Shown: one piece after another, positions 5,792 through 36,586 of the stretch | How positions within the stretch are numbered: position 1 is the stretch's first letter | Layout of the letters: every line of letters begins with the position of its first letter | Assembly (NCBI GenBank): GCA_964392245.1 | Contig: CAYMOX010000024.1 | Span: forward strand, 1 to 40,000 | Direction: 5' to 3' | DNA from: an uncultured bacterium | Lineage (GTDB): Bacteria; Cyanobacteriota; Cyanobacteriia; Thermostichales; Thermostichaceae | Length of the DNA stretch: 40,000 bases | Translations under genes and position numbers: made by a program | The notes under the pieces: model-generated | What the model saw: the letters and a program-made list of their open reading frames with translations, nothing else | The model's database searches: none | What the model was told of the DNA's origin: nothing

Positions 5792-5807
5792 GTCCTAATG
5801 ACTTGGA

Positions 5808-5846: not shown

Positions 5847-5890
5847 CCACTGCCTGTATCTCTCTACCTACTCCATTCGAGAGGAAGATT

Positions 5891-7330: not shown

Positions 7331-7481
7331 ATGCTCTTCAAGTTATTCCATTGGGATCCAGCCTGCGTAGCCCCACAACAGTTCTTGTCATCGATCAACT
7401 TCAGTTGCCTGTCATCACCAATCACGTGCTTTGAACCCAGGGGATCCCTTCGTCCTACCCCATCCCTCAAGGAGAATTACC

Positions 7482-9017: not shown

Positions 9018-9098
9018 GAACCCATGCTTTCAGGCGATTGATCTTTAACAACGATTGATCGCCTCAACCAACTCCTTTTGAAGATTAAGGAGATTTAT

Positions 9099-15844: not shown

Positions 15845-17024
15845 GGTGCATTTCCCTCAGGTGAGATCTGGATTGTAGAGTATGGTACTGCTGCTGCTGC
15901 AGTTGAGCCGATCGCTCCCAGGTGTAGTGGCGGATCACCTCCTGGCTGGCGGAGATCAAAGAACCTGCAACCTCAGGCACAATCAATTTCCGCATCGCCC
16001 CGGAAAGAGCAGAAACCTCCAGGGGATCCACCAGCAGCGCTTGATCGGGAGTCAGAAATTCGGTAAATGGCTCAATCCCCGATGTGAGCACAGGCAACCC
16101 TGCCGCCATCGCCTCCATCACCACCAATCCCCACCCTTCCTGGATCGACGGAAATACAAATCCATCCGCAGCATGGTAAAGAGCCACCAGCTCAGCATCC
16201 GTAACCACCCCAGTCAGGATCAGGGATTGGCCCAGCCGCATCTGCAGCTCCTCACAGGTGGCAAAAAATTGCTCTCGGTAGGCTGCGTAATCAAACAGCG
16301 TCATTCCCCCGGCGATCACCAGTTGAGCTTGCGGGTCAGTGGAAAGAACCTGATGAAAAGCCTGTAGAAGACGAATGGAATTTTTGCGAGGTTCAATCCC
16401 ACCCACGGTCAGATAAATAGGATCCCCGCTTAACCCATACTTCTGCTTGAGACTGGCAACTGCCTGGGGATCACAATCTTGAAATCGTTCTCTACAGATC
16501 CCATTCCACACCTGTGTTGACGATCTGCCGTACTCCCGCAACAGTTGTTCCTGTCCCTCACGACTGACACAAAAGCAGTGATCCACCTCCATCACCGAGC
16601 GCCGCTGACATTCCTGCAAAAAAGGACTGGTGAAGGGATCCAGATGATGCACTGTCCTGACGATCCATCCCTTCCCCATAGGACTCTGGGGAGCTTCCTG
16701 CCGCAGTCGCACCAAAGCATTGGCACTGATACAGTCCTGAGCATGGTAAATCTCAAAAGGTTGGGGATATTCACGAAAAAACTCCACATAGTCCTGGATG
16801 CGCTGCTGGATCAGCATTTCGGTGCCTGCGGGTGCGGGTTGGGTAGGGACCAGCTTCCATGCACACTTGAGGGGCCGACAAAACGCTTGTCCCCCTTTAT
16901 CCAGAGCGAAAATACAGATCTCATGACCCAGTTGATGCAAAGCCTCCGACAATTCCATGGCATGGATCACGCCTCCCCGTGGATGGGTGGAGTAGGTGAG
17001 CATCGCAATTCGCAACGGGGCCAT
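15837..17024 (-). CDS. GT4-type glycosyltransferase (MSMEG_0565 family) of the Nit1C cluster
   Basis: The C-terminal motif EGWGLVVMEAMAAGLPVL is typical of GT-B/GT4 enzymes. ATG 17024 (MAPLRIAMLTYSTHPRGG) overlaps the upstream stop (TAATG). The ORF-track start at 17072 lies inside the preceding gene. Confidence 0.85.
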   Translation of the reverse strand: MAPLRIAMLTYSTHPRGGVIHAMELSEALHQLGHEICIFALDKGGQAFCRPLKCAWKLVPTQPAPAGTEMLIQQRIQDYVEFFREYPQPFEIYHAQDCISANALVRLRQEAPQSPMGKGWIVRTVHHLDPFTSPFLQECQRRSVMEVDHCFCVSREGQEQLLREYGRSSTQVWNGICRERFQDCDPQAVASLKQKYGLSGDPIYLTVGGIEPRKNSIRLLQAFHQVLSTDPQAQLVIAGGMTLFDYAAYREQFFATCEELQMRLGQSLILTGVVTDAELVALYHAADGFVFPSIQEGWGLVVMEAMAAGLPVLTSGIEPFTEFLTPDQALLVDPLEVSALSGAMRKLIVPEVAGSLISASQEVIRHYTWERSAQLQQQQYHTLQSRSHLREMHHA

Positions 17025-17971
17025 TAAGGAATTCCTCCCCAGCCCGTCAGAGGATCCTGGCCCAGATCCCAAAACAGTAGGGATTCATCGCCGGACGTGA
17101 GGTGGAGCTGGCCATCAGCGGTCAACCAGCCGATCTCACCACACCAGATCTTGTGGGACTGAAAGAGATCCTTCACTTCTGTAGCTAACGCAGGGGCAAC
17201 GCTGAAAAGAAAACCGAAACTGGGGAAACAGGTGAGCCACTCCTCAAGCGCAAAATCTACCGGACAGGGAATCTGATCCAGCTCCAGAACTGCTCCACAT
17301 TGGGAGGTTTCCAGCAACATCAAAGTTGTTCCCAGGATCCCGCCCATGCTGATGTCTTTACCCGCGTGACAGAGACCCCGCTCCGCCAGGGTAGGCAAAA
17401 GATTGAGCTTCTGGCGCAGTTCCCCAGGATCCGCCTGAGTGGCTGCATTCCAGAAGCCATAGAGAGGATGGCGTTGCCCCTGCAAATCCACGGCCAGCAG
17501 CACTTGATCCCCGGGTTGGGCAGCGAAACTACTGATCAGATGGGACGCCCGGCCTAAAATCGCCACGGCTAAGGCCTGATAAGGACTCTGGGCATTGGTG
17601 TGCCCTCCCACAATGGGAACCTGATAAGCCGCCGCCGCCGCCTGCATCCCCGCCCATAGTTCCGTTTGAGAGTCCAGGCAACCACTCCAGATCACATCCA
17701 CCAAAGCCAGAGGCCGTCCCCCCATTGCGTAAATATCACTGACATTCACCATGACAGCGCACCAGCCCGCAAACCAGGGATCGGTATCCACGAGCGTGGG
17801 CCACATACCTTCCGCCGCCAGCAACAGGTAACCATCCCCATCCGGAATTGCGGCACAATCATCCCCCAGCAAAGGGGCTGAAGATCCCAGTCGCTGCGCC
17901 ACCCGCTGAATATCTTGCTTCTGTCGGATCCCCAGGGAATGCCGTAGATCCTGGATCCGCTGCCAGTCCAT
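17024..17971 (-). CDS. AIR synthase-like (PurM/ThiL/HypE superfamily) protein, Sll0787 family
   Basis: N-terminal GDDCAAIPDG motif and a PurM-like fold pattern. ATG 17971 overlaps the GNAT stop (TGATG). The ORF-track start at 17974 is a GTG. Confidence 0.85.
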   Translation of the reverse strand: MDWQRIQDLRHSLGIRQKQDIQRVAQRLGSSAPLLGDDCAAIPDGDGYLLLAAEGMWPTLVDTDPWFAGWCAVMVNVSDIYAMGGRPLALVDVIWSGCLDSQTELWAGMQAAAAAYQVPIVGGHTNAQSPYQALAVAILGRASHLISSFAAQPGDQVLLAVDLQGQRHPLYGFWNAATQADPGELRQKLNLLPTLAERGLCHAGKDISMGGILGTTLMLLETSQCGAVLELDQIPCPVDFALEEWLTCFPSFGFLFSVAPALATEVKDLFQSHKIWCGEIGWLTADGQLHLTSGDESLLFWDLGQDPLTGWGGIP

Positions 17972-18480
17972 CACGATACCTCAGCCCACTCCAGCATCGG
18001 TCGAGGTTGGATCTCAGGCGGATAGGCGGCCAGGTTGGCCTGCATAAGATGGTGCGGACGATCCAGAAGACGGATCTCCGAAAGGGTCTGCCAGTGAAGT
18101 CGTCGGAAGAAACGCACATTTTGCAGCTGAACTGTGGCCAGGAACTGTTTGCACCCCCAGCCGTGAGCAGTGGTGACCGCTTTATGGATCAGTCCCTTCC
18201 CAATCTGGCCCTGTCTCCGAAAGTCAGGATGCACCCCCAGCCGACCGCCGTACCAGATCCCAGGTTCAGTTTCATAGATGCGCACCACCCCTACCACCTG
18301 CACTGCTTTCCTGTCATCCAACTGAAGGGCCACAATTGGATAGGCCACGGGATCCCATCCATCCCGATCCGTCTCGGCAAAAAGCCCTTGCTCTTCACAA
18401 AAGATCTGGAACCGGAGATCGTAGTAGGCCCGCACCTGAGCTGGGGTGGTGGCCAGCATAAATGAGAAAGCGTCTTTCAT
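17971..18480 (-). CDS. GNAT N-acetyltransferase (Sll0786 / MSMEG_0567 family)
   Basis: 169 aa with the GNAT core GGRLGVHPDFRRQGQIGKGLI. It occupies the conserved position in the Nit1C cluster. Confidence 0.85.
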   Translation of the reverse strand: MKDAFSFMLATTPAQVRAYYDLRFQIFCEEQGLFAETDRDGWDPVAYPIVALQLDDRKAVQVVGVVRIYETEPGIWYGGRLGVHPDFRRQGQIGKGLIHKAVTTAHGWGCKQFLATVQLQNVRFFRRLHWQTLSEIRLLDRPHHLMQANLAAYPPEIQPRPMLEWAEVS

Positions 18481-18514
18481 AGCATTAAATCTCGGTTAAT
18501 GGGTTGATGCGAGA

Positions 18515-19612
18515 TCAAACAGCAACCCGTTCAAACTGGGACAGGGCTGAACAGGCTCCACATTTGGCACATCCCGCCTTCATGGCTGCTGAGGTCATCC
18601 CATACTTCTGCAGGAGCTGCCCAATCTGCTGATAGAGACCCAACATGAACTGACTATCGGGAGCAGGATGATGGGCCAGGGGGGTTCCCATCAGAGGTAC
18701 AAACGGCACCACAAACGGATAAACTCCCATCCGGATCAGGCTCTCACTGGTGGAGACAAGCACCTCCTGGCTATCCCCCAGTCCGGCCAGCAAATAGGTG
18801 CTCACCTGTCCCCAGCCGAAGATGTCTACTGCCCGTGCAAAGGCTTCAAAGTAGGTTTCCACATCCACAGCAGCCTTACCGGGCATGATCCGCTGCCGCA
18901 CCTCGGCTGAGACGGCCTCCAGATGCATCCCCAGGCTATCCACTCCTGCATTTTTCATCCGTTCTAACCAGATCAGGTCTGCAGGCGGTTCACATTGAGC
19001 TTGAATGGGCAGATCCACCTCCTGTTTTACCGCTCGGGCACATTCAGCCAGATAGGCAGCGCCCCGATCCGAGGTTTGGGGTGTGCCTGTGGTCATGATC
19101 ATGTGGGTGACACCATCCAACCTCACAGCCGCCGCCGCCACCTCGGCTAATTGAGCTGGAGTTTTGCGAGCAATTGTGCGGCCTGCCTCCAGAGACTGCC
19201 CAATGGCACAGAACTGACAGGCGGTGGCCCGATCCGTGTAGCGCATACAGGTTTGCAAGACCGTGGTGGCCAGCACGTTATGGCTGTGCAGGAGAGCAAT
19301 CTTCCAGTAGGGGATCCCCTCAGAGGTGCTCAGTCCATAGAATCTCGGCACATTTGGGAATTCTACAGCGGTCAGAGGTTCCCCATTGTGAGTTAGGAGA
19401 TGGGCATGCGAGTCGGGTTCAGAAGTCACCTGATAGGGGGAAGTGGCGGCGGCATCTGTATAGATGGGCACCATGATCGTTGTCCCCTGGATCGTGACAG
19501 CCTTGTGATCCGAGGGTCCGGCCCCTCCCTTTCGTCCTGCAGAACCGTGGGCAGGATCCACCAGGCGCAGGCCCTGAGTCTGTAAATCGGTGATCAGTTG
19601 CTGGGCATTCAT
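18515..19612 (-). CDS. Radical SAM protein (MSMEG_0568 family) of the Nit1C cluster
   Basis: Cys triad CMRYTDRATACQFC (CX9CX2C) plus C-terminal CAKCGAC. ATG 19612 (MNAQQLITDL) lies 4 nt after the nitrilase stop. The ORF-track start at 19720 overlaps the nitrilase. Confidence 0.82.
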   Translation of the reverse strand: MNAQQLITDLQTQGLRLVDPAHGSAGRKGGAGPSDHKAVTIQGTTIMVPIYTDAAATSPYQVTSEPDSHAHLLTHNGEPLTAVEFPNVPRFYGLSTSEGIPYWKIALLHSHNVLATTVLQTCMRYTDRATACQFCAIGQSLEAGRTIARKTPAQLAEVAAAAVRLDGVTHMIMTTGTPQTSDRGAAYLAECARAVKQEVDLPIQAQCEPPADLIWLERMKNAGVDSLGMHLEAVSAEVRQRIMPGKAAVDVETYFEAFARAVDIFGWGQVSTYLLAGLGDSQEVLVSTSESLIRMGVYPFVVPFVPLMGTPLAHHPAPDSQFMLGLYQQIGQLLQKYGMTSAAMKAGCAKCGACSALSQFERVAV

Positions 19613-19616
19613 AGAG

Positions 19617-20624
19617 TTAGATGGGTTCAACTGCGGCAATCGCATCGGGTTCAGCAGCCTGTCCGTTGTGGAATGCGGGGATCTTGGGAGAATCAAGGGG
19701 GGCAGCGAGAGGACGGGCATCCTGATTAAGCCTCAACTGCAGAAGATCCGGGCGAGCATAATGGCCGACAGAGTCCATCATGCGTTTCCGTTTGATGATC
19801 AGGCTCAAATCCAGATCCGCCACGGCCAGGCCTTCTCCTTCGGTTACAGGGGGGCAGAGATGGTTTCCTTCGGGACTGATAATGGCGGTGTTACATCCTC
19901 CACTCAGAACCCGCTGTAACTTCTCATCCTGAGTGATCTGATTCACCTGCTCCGGGGAGAGCCAGCTGGTGGCATTGACGACAAAACATCCAGACTCCAG
20001 CGCGTGATGGCGAATCGTCACCTCGATCTGATCTGCAAAAATCTGTCCCACCATCGATCCTGGGAATTGCGCACAGTGGATCTGCTCCCGTTGCTCCATC
20101 AGGGCAAAGCGGGCCAGCGGATTGTAATGTTCCCAGCAAGCGAGTGCACCCACCCGACCCACAGCCGTCTCCACCACCTTGAGCCCGGATCCATCCCCCT
20201 GACCCCAGACCATACGCTCGTGGTAAGTAGGAGTGATCTTGCGCCGTTTTAGCAGCAAAGTCCCATCAGCATCAAAGATCAGCTGCGTGTTGTAGAGGGA
20301 GCCTCCATCCACCTCGTTGATCCCCAGTACCACCACCATCCCGTGAGACCGCGCAGTCTGTCCAACCGCCTCGACCTCTGGCCCGGGAACCGTCACAGCC
20401 TCTTCGTAGAGTCGGAGATGCTCCTTGCCCATGGCCACCGGGGGTTGCACAAAAGAGAAGTAAGGGTAGTAGGGGATCAGGGTTTCGGGAAAGACAATCA
20501 GCTGAATACCGTCCTGGGCAGCACTGGCAATCGTCTCCAGCACTTTTGACGTGGTGCCCTCACGGCTAAAAAGCACAGGACTGATCTGGGCTGCTGCTAC
20601 CTTGATCCGAGCGGAAGTGGTCAT
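19617..20624 (-). CDS. Nitrilase, Nit1C (Nit6803) clade
   Basis: Carbon-nitrogen hydrolase triad contexts [10 protein letters not shown] (Glu), [10 protein letters not shown] (Lys) and [11 protein letters not shown] (Cys). Confidence 0.92.
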
Positions 20625-22847: not shown

Positions 22848-24227
22848 CTAGATCCAGCCCTTCAGTGCCGCCTGATACACTGCCTGGTAACGGTTGCGGA
22901 CCTTCAGTTTCTGCACCGTGCTGTTGATGTGGAACTTAACCGTGCTCTCACTGATGTGCAGCTTCTGAGCAATGTCTCGATCCCGACTTCCCTGAGCTAA
23001 AAGTTGCATGACCTCCTGTTCCCGCTCGGATAACTTGATGGCATTCGAGATGGAGGGTAAGGTTTGACCGTGCTGCACCAGGGTGATCAGCTCCCGCAGT
23101 TGCTCAGCCTCGATCGTCAGATCAATGACAATCTCCGCCTGAAGAGGAACCGGGGTTGTGGGTGTCGACCGGATCCAGATCGCTCGGGGTGTTAAACTCA
23201 GCTGCTGGGGTTGATCGGTGATCAGGGTTGCTCCTGCATCTCCCTCATCGCAGATGATCAGGCCAGCCCGGTGAGCTAGTTGTGTGAAGGCCATTTGCAG
23301 AAGTGGAGCTGAACAAAGGATCCGCACTCTTCCGTTGGATAGCGATGGCTGTTGGGGAATTTGTAGACTGATCCAGCGCAATTGAGATTCAGAAAGCACC
23401 TCAATTTCCAGTTCGCCTCGCAAGCAAAAGCTAAGGCACCGCACCTCCTGCCAGATGCTTGCTTCTCTGTTCTGACCTTTAATGATTGCCTCCAGCCCGA
23501 TCCGCTCCGAGGTGTAAGTCAAACGGCAATACTGACATTCCAGCTCCTGCAGGATCTCTGCCGTGCGGCAAAACAAGCAGCTGGCCATGGTCGAGAGGGG
23601 AAACTCAGTGCCCACCAAAGTAAGTTGGGTCGGGTTCAGGATCTGAGCCAGGTGATCCGAGAGACTAGAGATCGGAACTACATTTACATCATGGGAAGGC
23701 TCTGTCTGTTTCTGTAATGCTGCATCCAACGCCACGGTGACCAGCATACACAGCACCTGCAAAACTTCCAGAAATTCGGATTCCAGGCTGTAATGACTGA
23801 AAAGAGCCAGAACCCCGATCACCCGTTGACCCACCTGCAGAGGGTAACCCGCAAAACCCCGGATCTGATGCTGCAGAGCCCATTCCCGATCCTTTACCCA
23901 GGGTTCTTCCGGCAGGTTGTTGCTGAGAAAAGGAACCCGATTCTGGGCGATCTTGCCCACTTTATAAGCCCCCATGGGAACCCGAGACATGGTGCCATTG
24001 GTACGGGTGTAAAGACCTGAGGACGCGATCAACCTCAGAGAAGATCGGTCGGGCTCCACCACCCAGATGCGGGCAAATGCAGAATTAAACTGTTCCACCA
24101 GACCATTGGTGGCCATCAGGGCAATGCTCTCAGGCCGAGACAAACCCGAAAACCCTTGAGCAATCTGGCTCACCTGCTGTAATCCCAACAGTAAGCGGGT
24201 TCCATCCAGAATTTTTGAGTCTGGCAC
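22848..24227 (-). CDS. GAF-domain LuxR-family transcriptional regulator
   Basis: N-terminal GAF-like region and C-terminal LuxR HTH (LSEREQEVMQLLAQGSRDRDIAQKLHISESTVKFHINSTVQKL). The start is a GTG at 24227. It converges on the flavoprotein gene with a 9-nt gap and is divergent from the PKS. Confidence 0.8.
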   Translation of the reverse strand: MPDSKILDGTRLLLGLQQVSQIAQGFSGLSRPESIALMATNGLVEQFNSAFARIWVVEPDRSSLRLIASSGLYTRTNGTMSRVPMGAYKVGKIAQNRVPFLSNNLPEEPWVKDREWALQHQIRGFAGYPLQVGQRVIGVLALFSHYSLESEFLEVLQVLCMLVTVALDAALQKQTEPSHDVNVVPISSLSDHLAQILNPTQLTLVGTEFPLSTMASCLFCRTAEILQELECQYCRLTYTSERIGLEAIIKGQNREASIWQEVRCLSFCLRGELEIEVLSESQLRWISLQIPQQPSLSNGRVRILCSAPLLQMAFTQLAHRAGLIICDEGDAGATLITDQPQQLSLTPRAIWIRSTPTTPVPLQAEIVIDLTIEAEQLRELITLVQHGQTLPSISNAIKLSEREQEVMQLLAQGSRDRDIAQKLHISESTVKFHINSTVQKLKVRNRYQAVYQAALKGWI

Positions 24228-24372: not shown

Positions 24373-27300
24373 ATGGTTGAACCTCTGGCCATCGTCGGGA
24401 TGGGATGTCGATTTCCTGGTGGTGTAGATTCTCCTCAATCGTTCTGGCAACTGCTCAAGCACCGTGTTGATGCCATTACTGAGATCCCTCCTGCACGCTG
24501 GGACGCAGAGGCTTTTTATGATCCAGATCCTGGGGCCCCTGGCAAGAGCATCAGTCGTTGGGGAGGGTTTCTACAGGGAATCGATCTTTTTGATCCTCAG
24601 TTTTTCCAGATTAATCCACGAGAAGCCGAGGAGATGGATCCGCAGCAAAGGTTACTGCTAGAAGTCACCTGGGAAGCATTTGAGAATGCAGCCATTCCCC
24701 CTGACAGTCTGCAGACAAAGTCAGTCGGTGTGTTTGTCGGTGCGGCCCATCAAGACTACTACCGACTAAGGATCCAAGCTCAAAATCGAGAAACATTAAC
24801 GGGATACTCCTACACAGGTGGACGCGCAAGCTTAATCGCTGGACGGATCTCATATTTTTTTGGCTTTCATGGCCCAGCCTATGTTGTGGATACAGCCTGT
24901 TCGTCATCTCTGGTAGCTTTGCATAACGGGTGTCAATCACTCAGGAACCATGAGATCGACGTTGCTGTTGTAGGTGGCGTCAACATCATTCTGGATCCGC
25001 AGGTATCAATCCTGGCTTCTAAATTGGGAACTCAATCACCGGATGGAAGGTGCAAAGCCTTTGATGCCCAAGCTAATGGATTTGTTCGCTCCGAAGGTTG
25101 TGGGGTTGTGATTGTCAAAAGATTAAATGATGCAGTTCAAGAGCAGGATCAGATCCTGGCAGTCGTGTATGGGTCAGGCGTTAATCAGGATGGGAGAAGT
25201 GAGTGCTTAACAGCCCCAGATTCTTCAGCTCAGCAGAGACTGATGCATCAAGTGTTGAAAGCCAGTGAGCTGCAATCGGATCAGATCACTTATGTCGAAG
25301 CCCATGGAACTGGAACACCTGTAGGCGATCCTATCGAATTTAATTCCATTTTAAAAGTATTAAGGCCAGATCGTTCGGGTTGCCAGTCTCCGCTGATCAT
25401 TGGATCAGTAAAGACAAATATCGGCCATTGTGAAGCCGCAAGTGGAATGGCATCAATCATCAAAACCATTTTGGCCTTACAGAATCGATCTATCCCAGCA
25501 AATCTTCATTTTCATAGACTTAATCCTAAGATCAAGCGATCAGACTCTGCAATCATTCCTAACCAGGAAACCATCTGGAAAGCAGAGGGAAGTGGACGAT
25601 ATGCTCTGATTAATGCTTTCGGCATAAGTGGCACAAATGCATGTTTAGTCATCGGAGAACCTGATCAGATCACAAGCAATAGAACTCAGTTGGATACACT
25701 TCCTCCTGATCCTGAGGTGTTGAAACTTATAATCTCAGCCAGGACAGAGAAAGATCTGCGATCTCTAGCCCAAAGATACATCCTATTTCTACAACACACC
25801 CAAGAAAACTTGAGAGACATCTGTTATACGGCACTTTCTGGAAGAACCCAATTCCCTCACAGCTTGAGTTTCACAGGTGATAGTAAAGACCAGTTACGCA
25901 AAAAAATCCAGAACTATTTAGAGAAAGACGAGAAAGATCCTCACACACAAGAAATTGACTCTATATCCAAAGATCCAAAATGGACTAATCAAAGGAAAGT
26001 AGAACTACCGACCTATCCATTTGATCGGCAAAGATACTGGTCTGACTATGTGCTGATCCATTGCTCTCATGAGGTTACGAAACCTGAAAACTTAGATCAT
26101 CCTCTACTTAATATCAAGAGTTTGGATAAGTCTGACAATCAAGAAGCCTATAACATAGAATTCAATACTCCTGATCTTAGCTATCTTCAAGATCACAAGA
26201 TTGAAGACAGGATCATCTTTCCAGCGGCTGGATATATCGAGATTCTTCTAGCGATAATGGCTAGGAAACAGAATACGGCAATAGAACCCCCAATCAAAAT
26301 AACCAACCTCTATCTACCTGCTTCACTACCACTCAAAGATAAACAAAATATTCAAGTCATCATCTCAGATCAATCAAACCACTTTAGAGCAGAAATTTTC
26401 AGCCATGATGGCAGCAACAAGATTTGCCACGCTTCAGCACAGCTTCATAGAGCATATACTCAAGACAATACTCTTGATCCTATATCAATCCAGAAACATC
26501 TTCAGACATACCATGAAAAGATCTCTGCAGAAGACTATTACAACCAATTAAGTCAGACTTTTCTTCGCTATGAACCTCTATTCCAGGGAATACGTGAAAT
26601 ATGGCTAGATCAAGGCAAGACATTTGCACAAATTCAATTACCTGAGCCTCTTCGATCTGATCACGCCAAATACTACTTTCATCCAGTTCTCCTGGACAGT
26701 TGTTTACAAGCCTCTAGATTACTCAGCCAGAATCTTCCTACACCTTCTCCGATTCTTCCGGTTTATTTCGAGGAGATCATTCTTTACCAATCGCCTGGAG
26801 AACAGATCTGGTGCTTAGCGCAAACCTCACCTCATATCCAGAGTAACCAAAGACAGCCCAATGAGTACACGATTGATCTGGATATATTTAATCCTGAAGG
26901 TGATCTTATTGCCAGAATTAAAGGGGTAAGAAGGCAAGCAAGTATTCAAACTAACAATCAAGGCTCCAGAGCACCCCAGTATTTTCAGATTCAATGGCAC
27001 AAGGATGAGATCAACAAAAAAATAACAGATGAGTGTATCAAAAAACAGTTCACTGGGTCCACCATTGTCTTTCTGGCCTCGGATCAGTGTTTGCTTCTAG
27101 AAACATTTATAGAGGCCCTTAAGGTGGCGTGTTCCAATCTGATTCTTATCAATAATGGATCGGAGTTCAAAAAGCTATCGAGTTGTATTTATCAGATCAA
27201 TCCTATAGAAACAACCAATTATGAGCATCTTTTTTCATTGATCAATAAAGACTTTCCGGAAATCACCCGGATTATCTACTCCACAGATCTAGACTATCGA

Positions 27301-30300
27301 GGAACAAAAACAACAGGGAAATCCATAGAAGAATTAACCGAATATGCTTGCCTAAGCCTTCTAACTCTAATTCAAGCCCTAGTAAAAAATCAAGTTCATA
27401 CTTTAGATCTGTGGTTGGTTAGCTGGGGCAGTCAGAGTATTAAGGACCATTGGCGTCCAATCCATATAACCTCATCACCCCTATGGGCACTGGGTAGAGT
27501 CATTCGCTCTGAGCATCCAGAGTTTAATTGTCGTCAGATCGATCTTGATCCCTGGGATATCAGATCTGCCAAACACTTTCTAACTGAACTACTCAGCAAT
27601 GACCGAGAAGAAGAGATTGTATGGCGGAATCAAACACGATGGGTACCTAGGCTCATTCAGGTCAATTTAGATTCAACTATCGATCAAGAAGAAAGGCTGA
27701 TTATACCCAATTCAAACCAACCCTTCAGCCTGGAAATTGGCACACGAGGACTGCTCAATAGTCTTCAATATCACCCACTCCAGCAGGATACACCAGGATC
27801 AGGACAGGTAGAAGTCAAGGTGATCGCTGCCGGACTAAATTTTAGAGATGTATTAAACGCTTTGGGAACCTACAACGGAGACCTGGGACCGATCGGTGGC
27901 GAATTTGCAGGCTATGTGATCAATGTTGGGCCAGATGTGACCACTCAATGGCTTGGAAAAAGAGTCATGGGATTGGCAACCGGATCCTTTGCCTCTCATG
28001 TGATTACCAGCCAGGAGTGGATAATTGAGATCCCTTCACTTTTGAGATTTATAGAAGCAGCAACGTTGCCGATCAATTTTCTTACTGCTTATCATGCACT
28101 CATCAAAGTCTCTAATCTACAGGCAGGACAACTGATCTTAATTCACTCAGCCACGGGAGGAGTTGGATTAGCAGCAATACAAATAGCTCAAGCTGCGGGT
28201 GCTCAGATCTTGGCAACAGCTGGTTCAGATGAAAAAAGAGCTTATTTAAGATCCCTTGGTATCCAGCATGTCATGAATTCCCGAACTTTAGACTTTGTCC
28301 AAGAAACGCTGGAGATCACGGAAGGGGAAGGAGTAGATGTTGTGCTTAATTCCTTGATCGGTGAATCTTTATATGGAAGCCTAAAATTACTCAGGCCAGG
28401 AGGAATATTTATTGAGATTGGCAATAAAGAGATCCTGTCTCAGGAATATCTAGCAAATTATTTCCCAGGAATAAAATATTATCCTTTTCACTTAGGGCAA
28501 TATCGAGAATCGCATCCTCAAGAGATCCAGAAAATGTTTCAAATTCTTTTGGATCAACTTAATCGCGAAGAATTCAGGATTGTTTCTTATCAAGTTTATC
28601 CCGCCACAGATGCCATTCCTATGTTTCGCAAGATGCAGAGAGCGGAGCATATTGGTAAGCTTGTCCTAAAGATCGGAGATCGGTCTGAGTCAGAACTGAT
28701 TAGTCCAGACGGTACATATCTGGTGACAGGGGGACTAGGTGGCATAGGGATCAAGTTAATCCAATGGTTGGCAAAAAAAGGTGCGAAATTCATAGTAATT
28801 CTCACTAGAGATGTCTTTAATCAGGAAAAACAATCTTCACTTGATGCCATAAACCAGCTCAGAGAAATGGGTATTGACATTGAGATCAAACCCACTGATG
28901 TTTCGGTCTTTGAGGATCTCCAAAAAATAGTGGAGTGGATCCAGAGGAATCGACCCCCACTTCGAGGAGTTTTTCATGCTGCAGGTGAGCTTCAGGACAG
29001 CTTACTGATCAATCTAACCTCGGAACAATTCACCCACGGGCTGGCTGCGAAAGTAAAGGGTACATGGAATTTACACCATCTAACCAGAGAGATTTCCCTG
29101 GATCACTTTGTCCTGTTTTCCTCGATTACAGCAATAACCGCATCACCTGGGCGGGGAGTGTATGCTGCAGCGAATCAATTTCTCGATTCATTTGCTCATT
29201 ATAGAACACAGATAGGTTTACCCTGTCTATCGATCAACTGGGGAGCCTGGGATGGGATCGGAATGGCTAGAAAAATGAGCAACCATCCTGCCTCTCCACA
29301 AATTCAAGATCCTATTGATCCAGATCATGCTATCGAATCTCTTGAAAAACTGCTCGGCCATCAGATTACTCAAATAGGTGTATTTAACATTAATCGATCC
29401 CTGCTCTCACAAATATTTCAGAGCAGGAGAACTCCAGGAATCTTTGAATTGCTTCAGAATAAATCTTCAGATCAGACTAATCCCCTATCTAGCCCCGAAA
29501 TCCAGGTAGAATCAAACAGCTTTGCAGACTATAACGATCCTCTCGCACAAAAAATACAAAAAGGTCTGGAAAAGCTCCTTGGCTTACGAGATCCTGAGCA
29601 GCTTGATGTAGATGTAACCCTGGATCACTATGGTCTTGACTCCCTGATGAAAGTTGAATTGAGAAATTGGATCTCTCAGGCTTTTAAGGTTACCTTGCCA
29701 GCCCACTTTCTGATCAATCCGTTTACATTTTCTGACTTGTATAAATTTCTGGTAGATGATAAACGAGGATCAGCATCTGATTCCAGATCCGATTTCTCTC
29801 GTCACTCTGATAGAGCTTCGATTGCGACACCGATTCAATCAGCTCAGTCTGCTTTTGATCATCTTCACTCTCGACTGCAGAACCTGAAAAACCTGAACCT
29901 GGATCGCCAACCTATTCATCACCTCGGTTATCACGGATCACTTCTAAGACTTAATCAGCGCTGGCTGATCAACTTTTCCAGTAATGACTATCTGGGTCTT
30001 TCTCAAGAGCCGGAGATTAAAGCCGCAGCCATAGAAACTATAAACAACTGGGGTGCAGGAAGCGGAGCCTCTCGATTAGTCACAGGCAGCCTTGAGTTAC
30101 ATCATCAACTGGAAGTAACGATTGCCGAATGGAAGAAATCTGAAGCATCTGTACTCTTTAATTCCGGGTATCAGGCCAATCAAGGGATTTTCTCAGGACT
30201 ATGCCAGCAGGGAGATCAGATCTTTTTTGATTCACTTGTTCATGCGTCTATTCGAGATGGCATGATCCTTTCCAGCGCAAAGTCTTTTGAATTCCATCAT

Positions 30301-31002
30301 AATGATCTCAACCATCTGGAAACACTTCTACAATCACATTCTGGTTCTGGACTGAGAATTATCATTACAGAGAGTGTCTTTTCGATGGATGGGGATCTGG
30401 CCCCACTGCAACAACTTCTCCATCTAGCCGAAACCTATGACTGTCTATTGATCATTGATGAGGCACATGCTGTGGGAGTATTTGGACCAAAAGGAGCAGG
30501 TCGTTGTGCAGAGTTCAAGATCAACTCCCCTCGTCTAATTCAGATTGGTACCTGTGGAAAAGCATTGGGGAGTTTTGGTGCCTATATCGCCTGTGCCGAC
30601 GTCATTGCTCAGCTTCTTTTTTCCCGCGCCAGAAGCCTGATCTATACAACAGCTCTCCCACCTGCAGTTTTAGCAGCCACACAAGCAGCAATCAACTTTA
30701 TCCAAAACCATCCTGAACGTCAGTCTCAACTTCACAGGAATCTATCTTACCTGCGAGAACTTTCTCATCAATCGGTGATCAGTCAAATCCATCCAATCAT
30801 TTTGGGTGAAGAGACTCTCGTTCTAGACGCCTCACAAGATCTCATAAAACAGGGCCTCTGGGTCCAGGCGATCAGACCCCCAACGGTTCCAGTGGGCAGT
30901 GCGCGACTTCGCATTTCCCTCACAGCTCTCCATACCCAGGACCAGATCTCAACTTTGTGGAAGCATCTGCAACCCTGGATCTCCTCCTCCCCGCATCACT
31001 AA
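24373..31002 (+). CDS. Type I polyketide synthase (KS-linker without AT-DH-psiKR-ER-KR-ACP) fused to a C-terminal BioF-like 8-amino-7-oxononanoate synthase domain
   Basis: Domain coordinates are approximate.
- KS, 24379-25656: DTAC Cys176 (TGT at 24898-24900), HGTGT, NIGH.
- Linker, 25663-26040: ends in [12 protein letters not shown]. There is no GHSxG motif anywhere in the protein.
- DH, 26095-26937: His608, LLDSCLQ.
- ER, 27724-28677: [11 protein letters not shown].
- KR, 28708-29262: [18 protein letters not shown].
- ACP, 29536-29757: GLDSL.
- AONS, 29905-31002: [50 protein letters not shown].
- No thioesterase domain is present. Confidence 0.92.
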
Positions 31003-32015
31003 TGAGTCATCTCCACAAAGGCGGGTAGGGGCTTCAGTCCCATGTCCTCCAGAAATTGACGATCCTGATTCTGATCCGGATTGGCTGTGGTCAGTAATTT
31101 ATCCCCATAAAAGATGGAGTTAGCCCCCACTGTGAAGCAAAGCAGTTGGGCTTCCCGAGACAAAGCCGTTCTTCCAGCACTCAACCTTACTTTAGACCGG
31201 GGCATCAGGATCCTGGCAACGGCACACATACGCACCAGATCGATCGCATCCACCTGGGGTTGAGCATCTAAGGGGGTTCCCTCAATCGGGACCAAAGCAT
31301 TAATGGGAACACTCTCGGGATGAGGATTCATTGTGGCCAGGATCTGCAACAGGTGAGCCCGATCCAGCACACTTTCCCCCAGACCAATGATGCCCCCACA
31401 ACAGATCTGAAGACCTGCCTCTCTTACATGTTCAAGGGTGCGCAGACGATCCTCGTAGGTGCGAGTGCTGATGATCTGAGAGTAGTACTCTGGACTGGTA
31501 TCCAGGTTGTGGTTATAAGCTGTTAATCCTGCCTCCGCCAGTTGCTTGGCCTGATCTGGAGTTAACATACCTGCCGTGACACATACTTCCAGATCCAGAT
31601 CTTTAACTGCTCTGACCATCTCCAGCATGTCCTGAAAAGGTTTACCTTCTCGGATTTCTCGCCAGGCCCAACCCATACAAAAACGGGTAGCCCCTAAAGA
31701 CTTGGCCTCTCGTGCTTGCGCCAGAACCTGATCCACCCCCAGGATCGGCTGAGCTTTGACTGCTGTGGGATGATGAGCTGACTGGGAACAATACCCACAA
31801 TCTTCTCCACACCCTCCGGTTTTGACACTCAGTAAAGTCGCCAGCTGGACTTGATTGGCAGAATTGTAACGGCGATGGAGTGTTTGCGCCCGATAGATCA
31901 AATCCAGGATCGGTAAATTCAGTAGATCCGTTACCTCCTCAACTGTCCAATCAAAGCGAATGTCATGGGGGAGAGCAGTCATGAGTGGAGGATCCTGTGG
32001 CTTCATCTTGTTCAT
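30999..32015 (-). CDS. bioB: Biotin synthase BioB
   Basis: Radical SAM motif CGEDCGYC plus BioB-type downstream conservation. ATG 32015 is preferred because the ORF-track start at 32018 is a TTG. The stop TAG (31001->30999) overlaps the PKS stop TAA (31000-31002). Confidence 0.93.
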
Positions 32016-32097
32016 CAAGCAGCAGCTAGAGTATCACATAACTGCTGAGCGGATATAGGGATGCACAATCCGTATCACTTGGCGGATCCTTAGCTTT

Positions 32098-33729
32098 TCA
32101 TCTGATTGCGCCACTGGAGTCATTCCTGTCGAATAGTGTCGCCATCTCTTTCTTCCCTCCAGCCTCTCTCTGATGTAAGTATGCCTGCAATTGAGTATGA
32201 ATTTGGTCTCGTACCGTTTCACGAAAGTCAATGAAGTGTTCCGCTTGCGCACAAACTGACAAATAAAAGGCAGCCACATTGGGGTATCGCCAAAGAATAA
32301 TGGCCAGGTTGCTCCAGAAACGCCAACGGGTTTTACGCACAATCCCCTGTCGCCAGGCAATGATCAATAAAGCACGAATCGTAATCCAATTGATCTCGGG
32401 TCCAGGACTGCCTGTGGTCTGACGTCGCCCTTGAAAGGATTGTTTTTGGCCTTCTCCCAGCTGAGAGAAATGTCGGAATGTTCGATTCAGAGCTGTGAGG
32501 GGATCATAGAGGGTCCAGAAAGCTTCCACATACTCATGGGCTATATCTTCAACAGGACGAGTCGGGACAAAATTCATTAGGGTAATCTGATTTGCATCGG
32601 CACTTTCAGTCAATAAGCGGCCTTCTTTTTGGAGACGATGCCAGAGAGCAGTATCTGGTAAAGCCTGCAACATACTGAACATCGCGGTCGGAATTGAGGT
32701 CTCTTCCACAAACCGGACCACCCGTTGCCCAGCCCCTTGCTTTTCACCATCAAAACCAATGATAAATCCTGCCATGATGCGAAGCCCGGCACGGGTAATT
32801 GCTTGCACGGATTCCGCTAAAGGATCTCGCAGATTTTGAAATTTACGAGTGAGACCCAGGCTATCATCATCGGGAGTCTCAATCCCCAGAAAGACCGAGC
32901 CAAAGTTACAGTCCACCATCATCTGCATTAGCTCAGGATCCTGGGCCAGATCCACGGAGGCTTCGGTAGTGAATGAAAAGGGGTAGCAACGCTCCTCCAT
33001 CCAGGGTTTTAAAGCTGCCAACAGCCTTTTCACATTGCGCTTGTTGCCAATAAAGTTGTCATCCACCATAAAGATGCTGCGCCGCCAGCCTAAATCATAG
33101 AGATACTGCAGTTCAGCCAGCAGTTGTTCGGGTTCTTTAGTGCGTGGTTTCCGGCCATAGAGCACAATAATGTCGCAAAACTCACACTGAAAGGGGCAAC
33201 CGCGTGAGAACTGAACCGACATCTCCGCATAGAATTCCAGCTGCAGCAAATCGTAACGGGGAATGGGAGTGCTAGTGATGGCAGGTTTCTCCCCATTTGC
33301 GCGGAAGATCCCCTTTCGATCTCCTCGCTCCACTGCCTCCACAAACAGGGGTAGAGTGATCTCCCCTTCATCCAAGATCAGGAAATCCGCTCCCTCTGCT
33401 GCTGCCTCTTGGGGAAGGGAGGTTGGATAAGGCCCCCCTACTCCAACCAGTTTACCGTGTGCTTTTGCAGCCTTGATGCTGGCGATGAAGTCGGGTTTTT
33501 GCACAATCATGGCCGAAATAATCACCAGATCAGCCCATGCCCATTCTGCTTCGGTAACACACCTGAGATTACGGTCTACGAGTTTGTAGGCCCAGGACTG
33601 CGGTAGAATTGCGGCTACAGTTACCAACCCCAGGGGGGGAAGCTGTGCCTTAAAATTGACTAGCTCCAGTACTTTATCAAAGGACCAAAAGCTTTTGGGG
33701 AAGGCTGGATATATTAGGAGGATATTCAT
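32098..33729 (-). CDS. B12-binding-domain radical SAM protein (class B, DUF4070-like C-terminus), function unknown
   Basis: N-terminal cobalamin-binding-like domain (MNILLIYPAFPKSFW...LGLVTVAAIL) and radical SAM motif GCPFQCEFC. It lies between bioA and bioB on the same strand. Confidence 0.85.
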   Translation of the reverse strand: MNILLIYPAFPKSFWSFDKVLELVNFKAQLPPLGLVTVAAILPQSWAYKLVDRNLRCVTEAEWAWADLVIISAMIVQKPDFIASIKAAKAHGKLVGVGGPYPTSLPQEAAAEGADFLILDEGEITLPLFVEAVERGDRKGIFRANGEKPAITSTPIPRYDLLQLEFYAEMSVQFSRGCPFQCEFCDIIVLYGRKPRTKEPEQLLAELQYLYDLGWRRSIFMVDDNFIGNKRNVKRLLAALKPWMEERCYPFSFTTEASVDLAQDPELMQMMVDCNFGSVFLGIETPDDDSLGLTRKFQNLRDPLAESVQAITRAGLRIMAGFIIGFDGEKQGAGQRVVRFVEETSIPTAMFSMLQALPDTALWHRLQKEGRLLTESADANQITLMNFVPTRPVEDIAHEYVEAFWTLYDPLTALNRTFRHFSQLGEGQKQSFQGRRQTTGSPGPEINWITIRALLIIAWRQGIVRKTRWRFWSNLAIILWRYPNVAAFYLSVCAQAEHFIDFRETVRDQIHTQLQAYLHQREAGGKKEMATLFDRNDSSGAIR

Positions 33730-33903
33730 TGATTTTTCTGATATCTGTCATCCTATGCTGATTAACTCAATTCAGCAATACACAGATCCATTGCATCTAG
33801 TAGGACATTCTCGGTACAAAGCTATCATGGCAGGCGTTTGTCGATCCAGAAGTATCCGTAATCTGTTTGCAAGGGGCTGGAACAGCTTTTACCAGAAGAT
33901 GAG

Positions 33904-35190
33904 CTAGAGTGCAAGAATCTCCTTTAAGATTTGATTGATCCCCAGATAGATCTGAATGAGTTCATCCTCAGTTATACAGTAGGGAGGCATCACATAAAGG
34001 ACATTCCCGAGAGGTCGTAGCAACAAACCTTGTGCGATGGATCGTTTTCTAATCTCTAGTCCAACTTGATTTAGATAGCCTGAAGCTTCTGATGTTTTTA
34101 CATCCATGGCTGCAATTGTCCCCGTCACACGCCAATTCGAGATCCGGTCATGATCCAGGTACTGTGCATAGCAGCGCTGATGAATCATTTCCATAGACTT
34201 AAAAATATCCTCATTTTCAGTCAGCAACTCCAGCGAAGCTAACCCTGCTGCACACCCGAGAGGATTGGCTGTATAACTATGTCCGTGGAATAGAGTCTTT
34301 AACAGATCATCACTATAAAAAGCCTGGTAAATCTCTTCAGTACAGACCGTAACCGCCAGAGGTAAAAAACCTCCCGTAATCCCTTTTGAGAGGCAGATAA
34401 TATCAGGTGAAACCTGAGCTCGCAGAGCTGCAAACCAATCACCTGTACGTCCAAATCCTGTCATCACTTCATCGAAAATGAGCAGGCTGTCATAGGTTCT
34501 TGCCAGTTGATCCAGCTTCTGCAAGAACAAAGGCCGACACATCCGCATCCCCCCTGCCCCCTGCACTAGAGGTTCAATCATGATCCCTGCACAACAATCT
34601 GGATCAGTGCTGAGGATCTTTTCCAACTGCAACAGTGTCCTTTCTTCCTGTTCTTGAACATCTGGATCTCCCTGGTAAGTGCATGGAAAGGGAACATATT
34701 TCACATCAAACAGTAGATCTGCATAAACCTGAGAGAAGATTGAGCGAGATCCGACTGACATAGCCCCAAAGGTGTCCCCGTGATAAGCTCCCTCAAAAGC
34801 AATAAAAGTAGTTCTCTGTTGATCTCGATTTCGCCAGTACTGATAGGCCATTTTTAAGGCGACTTCGACCGCTGTCGATCCATCATCAGAATAAAATACG
34901 CGGGTTAAGTTCTCAGGCAATTTATCAACTAATGCTTCAGCTAACTTCTCAGCAGGATCGTGGGTAAAACCTGCAAAAATAATATGCTCTAGTTGTTGAG
35001 ATTGCTCAAAGATCGCCTGAGAGATTTTGGGATGACAATGCCCGTGCAGATTCACCCACCAGCTGGAGATACAGTCCAGGATCCGCCGTCCATCCTCCAA
35101 CTCGATCCAGATCCCCTCTCCTCGCTTAACTTTCAAGGGTTCAGGAGATAATTTGGCCTGAGAGAATGGATACCATAGATGAGGATGCAT
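33904..35190 (-). CDS. bioA: Adenosylmethionine-8-amino-7-oxononanoate aminotransferase BioA
   Basis: Class III aminotransferase with the BioA N-terminus HLWYPFSQ and PLP-lysine context ICLSKGITGGFLPL. Confidence 0.93.
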   Translation of the reverse strand: MHPHLWYPFSQAKLSPEPLKVKRGEGIWIELEDGRRILDCISSWWVNLHGHCHPKISQAIFEQSQQLEHIIFAGFTHDPAEKLAEALVDKLPENLTRVFYSDDGSTAVEVALKMAYQYWRNRDQQRTTFIAFEGAYHGDTFGAMSVGSRSIFSQVYADLLFDVKYVPFPCTYQGDPDVQEQEERTLLQLEKILSTDPDCCAGIMIEPLVQGAGGMRMCRPLFLQKLDQLARTYDSLLIFDEVMTGFGRTGDWFAALRAQVSPDIICLSKGITGGFLPLAVTVCTEEIYQAFYSDDLLKTLFHGHSYTANPLGCAAGLASLELLTENEDIFKSMEMIHQRCYAQYLDHDRISNWRVTGTIAAMDVKTSEASGYLNQVGLEIRKRSIAQGLLLRPLGNVLYVMPPYCITEDELIQIYLGINQILKEILAL

Positions 35191-35200
35191 GATTAACCTG

Positions 35201-35866
35201 CTAGTTTGATTCCGGCTGAGTTAACTTTTGGAAAGCTCCCAGCAATGTTTCAGGATTCACCGGATTGAGAATATCAACCTCTCCTAAAATTGTCACCTGC
35301 CCATAGTGGGCAATGGCCTCCCGATTGGATCGGTTACTAGGTCCATTGAGAATCACGCCCCAGATCGGAATTTCAGCCTGACGCAAGGCCGCAAGAGACA
35401 GAAGTGTATGGTTAATCGTTCCCAGTGTACTTCGAGCCACCAGACAAACCGGCAGACCAAGATACCGGATCAGGTCAATGATCAGATCTTTTTGATTGAG
35501 GGGAACCAGCAACCCTCCTGCCCCCTCAACCACAAGATAAGGTTTGGAGTGAGAAGGGATCAGGAAGTCCTCAAGCTTGATATTCACACCATCAATTGCG
35601 GCAGAAGCATGGGGAGAAAGGGGCTGAGAAAGTCGAAATCGTTCAGGCATAAAATGACTGGGATCCAGCTGAGTAACCTGCCTTACATACTCTGTATCTG
35701 TTAAAGGCAATAAACCAGACTGAACGGGTTTCCAGTAAAGGGCTCCTAATCCTAAAGTTAACAATGCAGAAATAACTGTTTTGCCAGCATCGGTATCTGT
35801 TCCTGTAACAAAGATCTGTTTGGGGGGATTGAACTGGATCGATGAGGAATCCTTAAATTGCTGCAT
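35201..35866 (-). CDS. bioD: Dethiobiotin synthetase BioD
   Basis: P-loop FVTGTDTDAGKT and a length of 221 aa. It ends 10 nt upstream of the bioA start. Confidence 0.9.
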   Translation of the reverse strand: MQQFKDSSSIQFNPPKQIFVTGTDTDAGKTVISALLTLGLGALYWKPVQSGLLPLTDTEYVRQVTQLDPSHFMPERFRLSQPLSPHASAAIDGVNIKLEDFLIPSHSKPYLVVEGAGGLLVPLNQKDLIIDLIRYLGLPVCLVARSTLGTINHTLLSLAALRQAEIPIWGVILNGPSNRSNREAIAHYGQVTILGEVDILNPVNPETLLGAFQKLTQPESN

Positions 35867-35887: not shown

Positions 35888-36586
35888 TCAATGTTCACAA
35901 CGGATCTCGTTCAAGGTGCGCATCAATAGATCCAGCGCCACCACCCCGATTAACCCTCCGACCAGCAATCCTGTGAGGCCATCCACCCAGATCCAGCCCC
36001 ACTGACCGATCCCCAGGGCTGCGAGCAACACCCCAATAGCCCCACAGGCATCCCCAGCCATATGCATACACACAGCTCTCACGGAATGATCCTCATGGCT
36101 GTGATGGAGAAGCAACCAGGCACTCCAGCCATTCACCCCCAGATTCATGACTGCTGCAGTCATCATGGGCAAACTCAAAATGGCCGTGGGAGGATGATAG
36201 AGACGTAGACAAGCCTGACAGACAATCGCGACCCCAATACAGAGCAACAGGATCACACTGCCAAAAGCCACACACCGCTCCAAACGCCGATGCACTTGGT
36301 GGGTCAGACGATGGGTTAGAGAGGCGATTAACAACATGAAGCCCAGCAGCCAGGCATCCGAAAAAAGGTGACCCGCGTCCGCCAGCACCGCCAAACTATC
36401 GCTCCAGATCCCTAGAGTGATTTCCATTCCCGCCACCAGCATCAAACTGGCAAAGGCCAATCCCAGCGCCCTGGATTTGGGGTGTCCCGGTTCCTTACAA
36501 CGCTCCTCATGGGAAAAAGCAATGGGCGGGGCAGAGGGGTGAAGGATCTGCATCTGAAAACTCAGTAACGGCGATGGATAGCCCAT
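35888..36586 (-). CDS. Cation diffusion facilitator-type transporter, membrane domain only
   Basis: CDF-like HxxxD motifs in TM helices (HLFSD, HMAGD) and about 6 hydrophobic segments. The protein ends right after the last TM helix, so the usual cytoplasmic C-terminal domain is missing. Its stop is 21 nt from the bioD ATG. Confidence 0.55.
   Translation of the reverse strand: MGYPSPLLSFQMQILHPSAPPIAFSHEERCKEPGHPKSRALGLAFASLMLVAGMEITLGIWSDSLAVLADAGHLFSDAWLLGFMLLIASLTHRLTHQVHRRLERCVAFGSVILLLCIGVAIVCQACLRLYHPPTAILSLPMMTAAVMNLGVNGWSAWLLLHHSHEDHSVRAVCMHMAGDACGAIGVLLAALGIGQWGWIWVDGLTGLLVGGLIGVVALDLLMRTLNEIRCEH

Follow-up and report, generated by a model that had tools for sequence, protein, structure and literature searches.

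The pimeloyl arm is the variable and incompletely solved part of bacterial biotin synthesis. At its end, BioF condenses a pimeloyl thioester with L-alanine to give KAPA (7-keto-8-aminopelargonic acid) and CO2. The known routes to pimelate comprise BioC/BioH and its variants, BioI/BioW, BioZ, BioE (2025) and a set of fatty acid synthase (FAS)-like enzymes in Desulfovibrio. In Synechocystis-type cyanobacteria the source of pimelate is undetermined (PMC7133116). Here we analyzed a 40,000-nt stretch of contig CAYMOX010000024.1 (hereafter the window) from an uncultured cyanobacterium of the family Thermostichaceae. Between positions 24,373 and 35,866 it carries a gene in which a single-module type I polyketide synthase (PKS) is fused to BioF, next to bioB, bioA and bioD. 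We consider it probable, though well short of certain, that the encoded protein makes KAPA for biotin. An earlier sequence-only reading of this locus had proposed such a route and stated that no characterized pathway of this kind was known; in agreement with this, we found no published account of a bio locus in which a type I PKS is joined to a genuine BioF.

For Desulfovibrio, a FAS-like pathway encoded in the bio cluster was reportedly predicted by Rodionov in 2004. The sequence-only reading cited this prediction as a conceptual precedent. The comparison remains relevant, but the pathway is no longer only predicted and now has genetic support (PMC10102598). Random barcode transposon-site sequencing (RB-TnSeq) indicated that an acyl carrier protein (ACP), a ketoacyl-ACP synthase (KAS), a ketoreductase (KR) and two FabZ-like proteins, encoded in the bio cluster by DVU2560-DVU2563 and the gene for a dedicated ACP, are needed for biotin-free growth of D. 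vulgaris, which has no bioC/bioH (PMC10102598). The authors further suggest that these FAS-like enzymes have less hydrophobic active sites (PMC10102598). The locus described here is similar in that dedicated ketosynthase (KS), KR, dehydratase (DH) and ACP functions are encoded together with bioF, bioA, bioD and bioB, and in that bioC and bioH are missing, in our case from the window. On the other hand, the Desulfovibrio enzymes are discrete type II proteins with no obvious enoylreductase (ER) and with a separate BioF, and they occur in anaerobic Desulfobacterota and Chrysiogenetes, whereas here a single type I polypeptide of oxygenic cyanobacteria combines all activities, ER and BioF included. 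Judged by architecture, the two systems are not homologous. By analogy, the PKS-BioF protein would be the type I counterpart of the Desulfovibrio pathway, welded to BioF.

Other described systems share particular features with the fusion. In E. coli and the BioG, BioK and BioJ variants of its BioC/BioH route, a malonyl primer is extended twice with malonyl units and fully reduced, and BioF receives a pimeloyl-ACP thioester, as we propose here. However, E. coli hijacks its housekeeping FAS by means of a methyl-esterified primer, whereas the synthase described here is a dedicated one and no methyltransferase or esterase is encoded in the window. BioZ of alpha-proteobacteria is likewise a dedicated condensing enzyme making a C7 diacid thioester for BioF, but it is a stand-alone KAS III that uses glutaryl-CoA from lysine catabolism and leaves the reduction to FAS, whereas the KS described here belongs to a type I PKS and has a reducing loop of its own. 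Assembly lines that end in an alpha-oxoamine synthase (AOS) include saxitoxin SxtA and fumonisin-type systems. In PKS or nonribosomal peptide synthetase (NRPS) lines of this sort, such as the 1741-aa protein P0139, the ACP-bound chain is released, as in our proposal, by a pyridoxal phosphate (PLP)-dependent decarboxylative condensation with an amino acid, but their AOS domains are not BioF orthologues and their products are secondary metabolites. Finally, BioF is found covalently linked to the enzyme of the preceding or the following pathway step, as in the natural BioW-BioF fusion (PMC9544090) and in the BioD-BioF and BioF-BioA fusions that we also found in this analysis. The partners in these fusions are small single enzymes, none of which supplies the whole carbon chain or carries an ACP.

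Architecture of the PKS-BioF protein and its bio locus

All open reading frames (ORFs) of sufficient length in the window were scanned, and domains and families were assigned with Pfam and NCBIfam models. The fusion gene is one uninterrupted frame in which Pfam placed, in this order, KS, a remnant of the linker between KS and acyltransferase (AT), DH, a pseudo-KR (psiKR), ER, KR, ACP and BioF (Table 1). The sequence-only reading had described a 2209-aa ORF with KS, DH, ER, KR and ACP domains and their signature motifs, and both Pfam and the catalytic residues bear this out. On motif inspection, the catalytic residues of KS, DH, KR, ACP and BioF and the NADPH motif of the ER were all intact. 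Judged from the KS, DH, KR and ACP residues and the ER NADPH motif, the protein is a predicted fully reducing type I PKS. The DH motifs HxxxxxxxxP and DxxxQ are kept in all four orthologues (see below), and the psiKR motif is common to the orthologues and a sister PKS, P0070. Neither an AT (Acyl_transf_1, PF00698) nor a thioesterase had been recognized in the earlier reading, and indeed the 2209-aa protein gave no Pfam match to either. Since the gap between KS and DH is only 145 residues, a hidden AT at that place is impossible. A chain on the ACP can leave only by way of BioF.

Table 1. Positions in the window of the PKS-BioF gene, its domains and the adjoining genes.
Feature	Coordinates	Strand	Residues	Support and remarks
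PKS-BioF fusion gene	24373..31002	+	2209 aa	one uninterrupted ORF; Pfam and NCBIfam
KS	24379..25662	+	3-381	PF00109/PF02801, E=2e-97; C176, H311, H352
CurL/RhiE-type KS-AT linker remnant	25726..25926	+	452-518	PF22621/PF22336
DH	26098..26940	+	576-856	PF21089/PF14765; H608, D775
psiKR, structural pseudo-KR subdomain	27103..27597	+	911-1075	PF21394
ER	27742..28674	+	1142-1432	PF08240/PF00107/PF13602; NADPH motif HSATGGVG
KR	28711..29253	+	1447-1627	PF08659, E=3e-61; K1560, S1584, Y1597; LxD motif, B-type
ACP	29551..29721	+	1727-1783	PF00550/PF23297; phosphopantetheine site S1757 in YGLDSLMK
BioF domain	29935..30969	+	1865-2198	Aminotran_1_2, E=3e-52; PLP lysine K2063
bioB (biotin synthase)	30999..32018	-		TIGR00433, 383.5 bits vs cut-off 225; convergent with PKS gene
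B12-binding radical S-adenosylmethionine (SAM)/DUF4070 gene	32098..33729	-		Pfam; no NCBIfam model passed
bioA (aminotransferase, KAPA to 7,8-diaminopelargonic acid (DAPA))	33904..35190	-		TIGR00508, 547.9 bits vs cut-off 405
bioD (dethiobiotin synthase)	35201..35866	-		TIGR00347, 121 bits vs cut-off 83; 10 nt upstream of bioA
GAF-LuxR regulator	22848..24227	-		Pfam; divergent from PKS gene; GC content at third codon positions (GC3) 0.61, native

Several lines of evidence identify the terminal domain as a genuine BioF, with its catalysis predicted from the equivalog cut-off, the phylogeny and the conserved positions. In isolation, the domain scored 437.6 bits against the bioF equivalog model TIGR00858, above the cut-off of 426.45. 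This was the only AOS-family model passed, with scores far under the cut-offs for the KBL, SPT, ALAS and CqsA models, and the top matches in the Protein Data Bank (PDB) were entries for 8-amino-7-oxononanoate synthase (AONS). Its nearest relatives by sequence are stand-alone BioFs from cyanobacteria (57-61% identity), among them that of the cultured Synechococcus sp. PCC 7336 (58%), and thereafter identity is 50% or lower. In a neighbor-joining (NJ) tree built without bootstrap, the four fused domains were monophyletic and sister to the PCC 7336-type cyanobacterial BioF clade, and the PKS-AONS protein P0139 was a distant outgroup. A phylogeny had been among the checks proposed in the sequence-only reading, and in this tree the domain groups with cyanobacterial BioFs and not with non-BioF oxoamine synthases. 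The tree, the equivalog score and the conserved positions described next all uphold the initial BioF-like assignment, and the BioF motifs quoted at that time were all found in the translation.

The conserved positions were taken as the 60 columns that are at least 90% conserved among 255 stand-alone BioFs. All 60 are retained in the window protein and 57 in all four orthologues together, as against 45 of the 60 in P0139, which is without N47, R349 and the N-terminal Arg, all three of them present in the window protein. The E. coli residues N47, H133, D204, H207, T233, K236, R349 and R361 (numbering checked against PDB 1BS0) correspond to N1871, H1957, D2029, H2032, T2060, K2063, R2168 and R2180. 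In the literature we found no confirmation of the residues through which BioF would hold the carboxylate of the pimeloyl chain. The nearest stand-alone BioFs (L002, L008, L023 and L024) have housekeeping surroundings with neither a PKS nor a bio cluster and, because of these contexts, provide no unfused intermediate with a PKS beside bioF and no split system.

As in the initial description, the fusion gene converges on bioB and overlaps it, the PKS stop codon TAA (31000-31002) sharing positions with the bioB stop (CTA, 30999-31001). The bioD-bioA-radical SAM-bioB run reported at the same time holds in its gene order and in the identities of bioB, bioA and bioD, but the radical-SAM gene within it is probably a passenger. 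Orthologues that are 69-83% identical to it are present in Leptolyngbyaceae, Nodosilinea, Pseudanabaena, Halomicronema, Calothrix, Gloeomargarita and others, and in 4 other cyanobacteria (L018, L019, L021 and L022) the neighboring genes are unrelated to biotin. As a core cyanobacterial gene unlinked to bio genes in those four genomes, it was rejected as a member of the pathway. More generally, this B12-radical-SAM/DUF4070 gene is present across most cyanobacterial orders and has no conserved neighbors. Among the scanned ORFs of the window there was no second bioF, no bioC-, bioH-, bioG- or bioK-like gene, no methyltransferase, alpha/beta-hydrolase or esterase, no BioW-like pimeloyl-CoA synthetase, BioI-like P450, BioZ-like KAS III or BioE-like diiron oxygenase, and no AT, consistent with the claim that the window holds neither a stand-alone bioF nor any known pimelate-supply gene.

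Distribution, selection and origin of the fusion

The fusion is extremely rare. The window protein is a singleton in clustering at 90% identity and, among 1.84 billion representatives of 50%-identity clusters, P0002 (2078 aa; 43% identity overall, 57% over ACP and BioF) is the sole other one in which ACP and BioF are arranged in this way. When 185,579 species genomes were scanned for the pattern, two carriers emerged, both metagenome-assembled genomes (MAGs), namely Synechococcaceae cyanobacterium SM2_3_1 and the MAG that encodes P0002. The host of P0002 is read as cyanobacterial because a protochlorophyllide-reductase-type gene (PF00148 and PF08369) lies nearby. A scan of metagenome contigs gave no further PKS-BioF fusions, and a search of PLSDB plasmids gave no fusion at useful identity. 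In one PLSDB record, a match at less than 60% identity extends over at least 80% of the query made of ACP and BioF, so that this plasmid carries some other carrier-protein-AONS fusion. Altogether, the carriers represent two lineages and four or five assemblies, all of them cyanobacterial.

Two relatives, L004 and L003, were found via the neighboring genes and come from Joint Genome Institute (JGI) sample 3300035633. L004 is 90.6% identical to the window in nucleotides and 85% identical in the PKS protein, and has the same gene order of flavin-containing monooxygenase (FMO), GAF-LuxR, PKS-BioF, bioB and radical SAM. The SM2_3_1 contig (L005) is 81-87% identical to the window in nucleotides. The tail-to-tail arrangement of the PKS gene and bioB recurs in L004 and L005, bioA is kept in L003 and L005, and bioD in L003. 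A survey of cyanobacteria for co-occurrence of the fusion with bio genes had been suggested in the sequence-only reading. Here, bioB, bioA and bioD are conserved with the fusion in three close relatives, and the fusion is too rare to give a general cyanobacterial answer.

The gene is kept by purifying selection. Between the window and L004, the ratio of nonsynonymous to synonymous substitution rates (dN/dS) was 0.27 for the whole gene, 0.25 for KS, 0.12 for BioF and 0.09 for ACP, whereas bioB gave 0.10, bioA 0.11 and the radical-SAM gene 0.07. Conservation follows the domains, with identities of 91% for KS and BioF, 87% for ER and KR, and 64-81% for the linkers. The catalytic motifs are all retained in two lineages at 43% mutual identity. 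The SM2_3_1 copy has a single frameshift in KR (L005 ~6220-6280), which splits it into calls of 1119 aa and 690 aa. With a contig coverage of only 3.35x, and with each half open apart from the frameshift, a fault of the assembly is the most likely cause, in preference to a pseudogene.

The PKS part has recognizable relatives. Its closest solved KS is that of the cis-AT cyanobacterial CurL (483 bits), followed by mycocerosic acid synthase (MAS, 444) and DEBS (413), with PksL and PksJ at ~366-370. A true trans-AT PKS origin was rejected, since CurL, MAS and DEBS outscore the trans-AT KSs per domain and the 652-bit match to the trans-AT bimodule 7ZMA is two KS matches summed. The protein thus appears to act like a trans-AT module while descending from a cis-AT one. 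Among solved structures, the reducing region is closest to MAS, an iterative and fully reducing enzyme, and the ER to CurK and JamJ. The closest full-length PKS relatives are P0060 and P0070 (KS 55% identical, DH-to-ACP 39% identical), which belong to an uncharacterized family and are single modules of KS-AT-DH-ER-KR-ACP with a C-terminal PlsC-like acyltransferase and with neither BioF nor linkage to bio genes. They share with the window protein the psiKR motif and the post-AT motif PTYPF..RYW. The AT of P0070 sits between the KS-AT linker and PTYPF..RYW, a place at which the window protein has no AT. P0002 lacks even the KS-AT linker. MAS, for its part, has neither of the two release domains, PlsC-like or BioF. 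The simplest history suggested by these comparisons is that a FAS-like, presumably iterative single-module PKS had its AT deleted and its release domain swapped for a cyanobacterial BioF.

Base composition adds to this picture. GC3 is 0.39 for the PKS-BioF gene and 0.43 for both bioA and bioD, whereas bioB has 0.52, the radical-SAM gene 0.51 and the remainder of the window 0.50-0.64. P0002 lies in a genome of 44% GC, where its composition looks native. From the atypically low GC3 that the three genes share, PKS-bioF, bioA and bioD may have arrived together from a lower-GC cyanobacterium. This suggests that they form one functional set leading from malonyl-CoA to dethiobiotin, with only BioB left to complete the pathway. 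Between 24373 and 35866, GC3 is a mosaic in which low-GC3 PKS-bioF and bioA/bioD flank the native-looking bioB and radical-SAM genes.

A candidate route from malonyl-CoA to KAPA and its alternatives

In the scheme that we propose, one polypeptide would convert malonyl-CoA, NADPH and L-alanine into KAPA, retaining a malonyl primer with its free carboxylate and letting exit through BioF set the chain length at C7. The scheme as a whole is tentative, and we place it close to, but below, an even balance. S1757 of the ACP would be phosphopantetheinylated, and the housekeeping malonyl-CoA:ACP transacylase (FabD) would load malonyl in trans, as the ancestral AT has been deleted. We infer that malonyl delivered by FabD is the only plausible acyl supply, given that no AT, loading module, ligase or CoA-transferase lies nearby. 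C176 of the KS would accept malonyl as a primer with its free carboxylate kept, and the KS would extend it twice with malonyl-ACP. After each condensation KR, DH and ER would fully reduce the beta-carbon, so that the chain would pass from malonyl through glutaryl to pimeloyl-S-ACP with no methyl-ester disguise. The BioF domain, with PLP on K2063, would accept only the C7 diacid thioester and condense it decarboxylatively with L-alanine to KAPA and free ACP, serving both as off-loading device and as chain-length gate. KAPA would next be taken to biotin by BioA and BioD, whose genes were apparently gained along with the PKS gene, and lastly by BioB. Loading in trans, the carboxylate-retaining primer, the two iterations, the pimeloyl-ACP intermediate and the KAPA product are all steps that we infer, and the malonyl-primed, iterative mode in particular is one that we hold with somewhat less confidence than the scheme at large.

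The KS offers some features in keeping with such a substrate. Compared with 258 PKS KS domains, the fused family has a signature of R151, A215, T220, Q221 and G269 where the others have Ala, Leu/Phe, Met, Leu and Ala. R151, A215, T220 and Q221 align with I138, F202, A207 and L208 of E. coli FabF. In the structures of FabF and FabB, the acyl pocket is taken to be lined by F202 together with residue 138 from the partner subunit. With Ala, Gln and Arg at the equivalents of F202, L208 and I138, the pocket is predicted to be less hydrophobic and to contain an added cation.

A number of observations weigh against this scheme. The R/A/T/Q/G signature is also found in the non-BioF sister PKSs P0060 and P0070 and so is not specific to the fusion; for this reason Arg151, Thr220 and Gln221 were downgraded as proof of carboxylate binding. 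In the ER, all four orthologues have N1351 and H1373 in place of the usual Lys and Asp, and Leu at the Trp1355 position (28423-28491). Lys is present in 88% and Asp in 59% of 90 comparator ERs, and CurK, JamJ, CurF and MAS keep both in the motif 'EIGK...FD'. The substitutions are confined to the fused family and are not seen in its closest sister PKSs without BioF. We take the Lys/Asp pair to be the proposed proton donors of PKS and FAS ERs, although we found no confirming paper. The change is probably a functional one, as it is conserved across two divergent lineages. ER activity is therefore predicted but, given the altered pair, not assured. It is common for a KS domain to turn a malonyl primer into acetyl by decarboxylation. 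To keep the carboxylate is chemically demanding and, to our knowledge, unproven for any type I PKS. The PKS part is under less constraint than bioB, bioA and the radical-SAM gene by dN/dS, and linkage to bio genes is documented in one lineage only, the contig of P0002 ending 249 bp past the gene. With 2 carriers among 185,579 species representatives, the fusion is extremely rare, as would suit an accessory trait that moves horizontally. Lastly, the absence of other biotin genes described above covers the 40-kb window, part of a contig of 59.7 kb, and the genome may hold a second bioF or a bioC/bioH route elsewhere.

The same evidence bears on a different use of the module, in which glutaryl-CoA would prime the KS as in BioZ and a single malonyl-ACP extension, fully reduced, would yield pimeloyl-ACP and then KAPA. 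One round per module is the norm, a single pass gives the right number of carbons, and the more polar KS pocket with its Arg could bind a C5 diacid. BioZ also sets a reported precedent for glutaryl-CoA priming (PMC7645780). However, no loading domain, CoA-ligase, CoA-transferase or lysine-catabolic gene was found in the window or related loci, deletion of the AT leaves FabD-delivered malonyl as the only obvious acyl supply, and the closest PKS relatives look iterative. Moreover, we know of no source of glutaryl-CoA in cyanobacteria, which again argues against a glutaryl primer. We regard the single pass as unlikely and weakly favor the malonyl-primed iterative scheme because it needs no extra genes, because the PKS relatives look iterative and because of the Desulfovibrio precedent.

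Alternatively, the product might not be a biotin precursor at all. If the KS were primed with acetyl, to which malonyl is so often decarboxylated, a saturated monocarboxylic chain joined to alanine would be released as an alkyl 2-amino-3-ketone, a sphingoid-like lipid or signal, and the place beside bio genes would be due to chance or to the descent of the domain. There are indeed assembly lines with a terminal AOS domain, such as P0139, and the compositionally foreign nature of the gene, its rarity and the relaxed constraint on its PKS domains relative to neighboring genes would all suit a secondary-metabolite synthase. Yet every BioF-conserved position is kept, including those lost in P0139, the bioF equivalog cut-off is passed and the domain groups with housekeeping BioFs. 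In addition, no tailoring, export or resistance genes accompany the PKS-BioF gene, its conserved partners are bioB, bioA and bioD, and bioA and bioD share its odd base composition, so that we find this reading distinctly improbable. Still closer to biotin, the locus might make an analogue or antimetabolite, for example one that differs in chain length or carries a methyl group, or it might be a second, redundant way to biotin next to a canonical one encoded elsewhere. Alpha-methyl-KAPA and related antimetabolites are products of Streptomyces clusters that encode BioF-like enzymes (PMC13336041), and the gene run does include a B12-radical-SAM gene from a family rich in C-methyltransferases. That gene, however, is the core cyanobacterial one discussed above, there is no streptavidin-like or resistance gene, and bioA, bioD and bioB pass their equivalog cut-offs, and we accord this explanation a very low probability. 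In comparison, KAPA synthesis for biotin agrees with the conserved BioF positions and with the conserved gene partners alike.

Genomic surroundings and significance of the fusion

The remaining ORFs of the window encode nif genes, signaling proteins, an operon with glycosyltransferase, GNAT and radical-SAM genes, an FMO-like protein, a cation diffusion facilitator (CDF) transporter and an efflux pair. The GAF-LuxR gene occupies the same position in L004 but is not found upstream of P0002. A nitrogenase cluster (643-10229, + strand) contains nifB, nifS, nifU, nifH, nifD and nifK, followed directly by a homocitrate-synthase-like gene, and the host is predicted to be a diazotrophic, Leptolyngbya-like cyanobacterium. 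A high-GC operon of tightly overlapping genes at 15837-20624 (- strand, GC ~0.57) encodes a GT4 glycosyltransferase, an AIR-synthase-like protein, a GNAT protein, a radical-SAM protein and a carbon-nitrogen hydrolase, and could represent a small cassette for modification or biosynthesis. The CDF metal transporter gene (35888-36586, - strand) lies 21 nt upstream of bioD and is missing in L003, where two tiny ORFs are found instead (8967-9320), a difference that marks an indel of recent date at the margin of the bio run. An Rfam scan of the window gave zero matches, and a promoter and terminator scan between 22.7 and 37 kb gave results at chance level only.

With two lineages known, the fusion is too rare to explain cyanobacterial biotin synthesis in general. 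For the lineages that carry it, the proposed function, if true, would represent another independent solution to the pimelate problem, the fifth or sixth, and the first type I PKS dedicated to an essential cofactor, biotin. It would also mean that a megasynthase is able to handle intermediates with a free omega-carboxylate, and that BioF can act as both chain-length gate and release domain. One gene which, together with a phosphopantetheinyl transferase and FabD, would lead from malonyl-CoA and alanine to KAPA would be attractive for biotin engineering.

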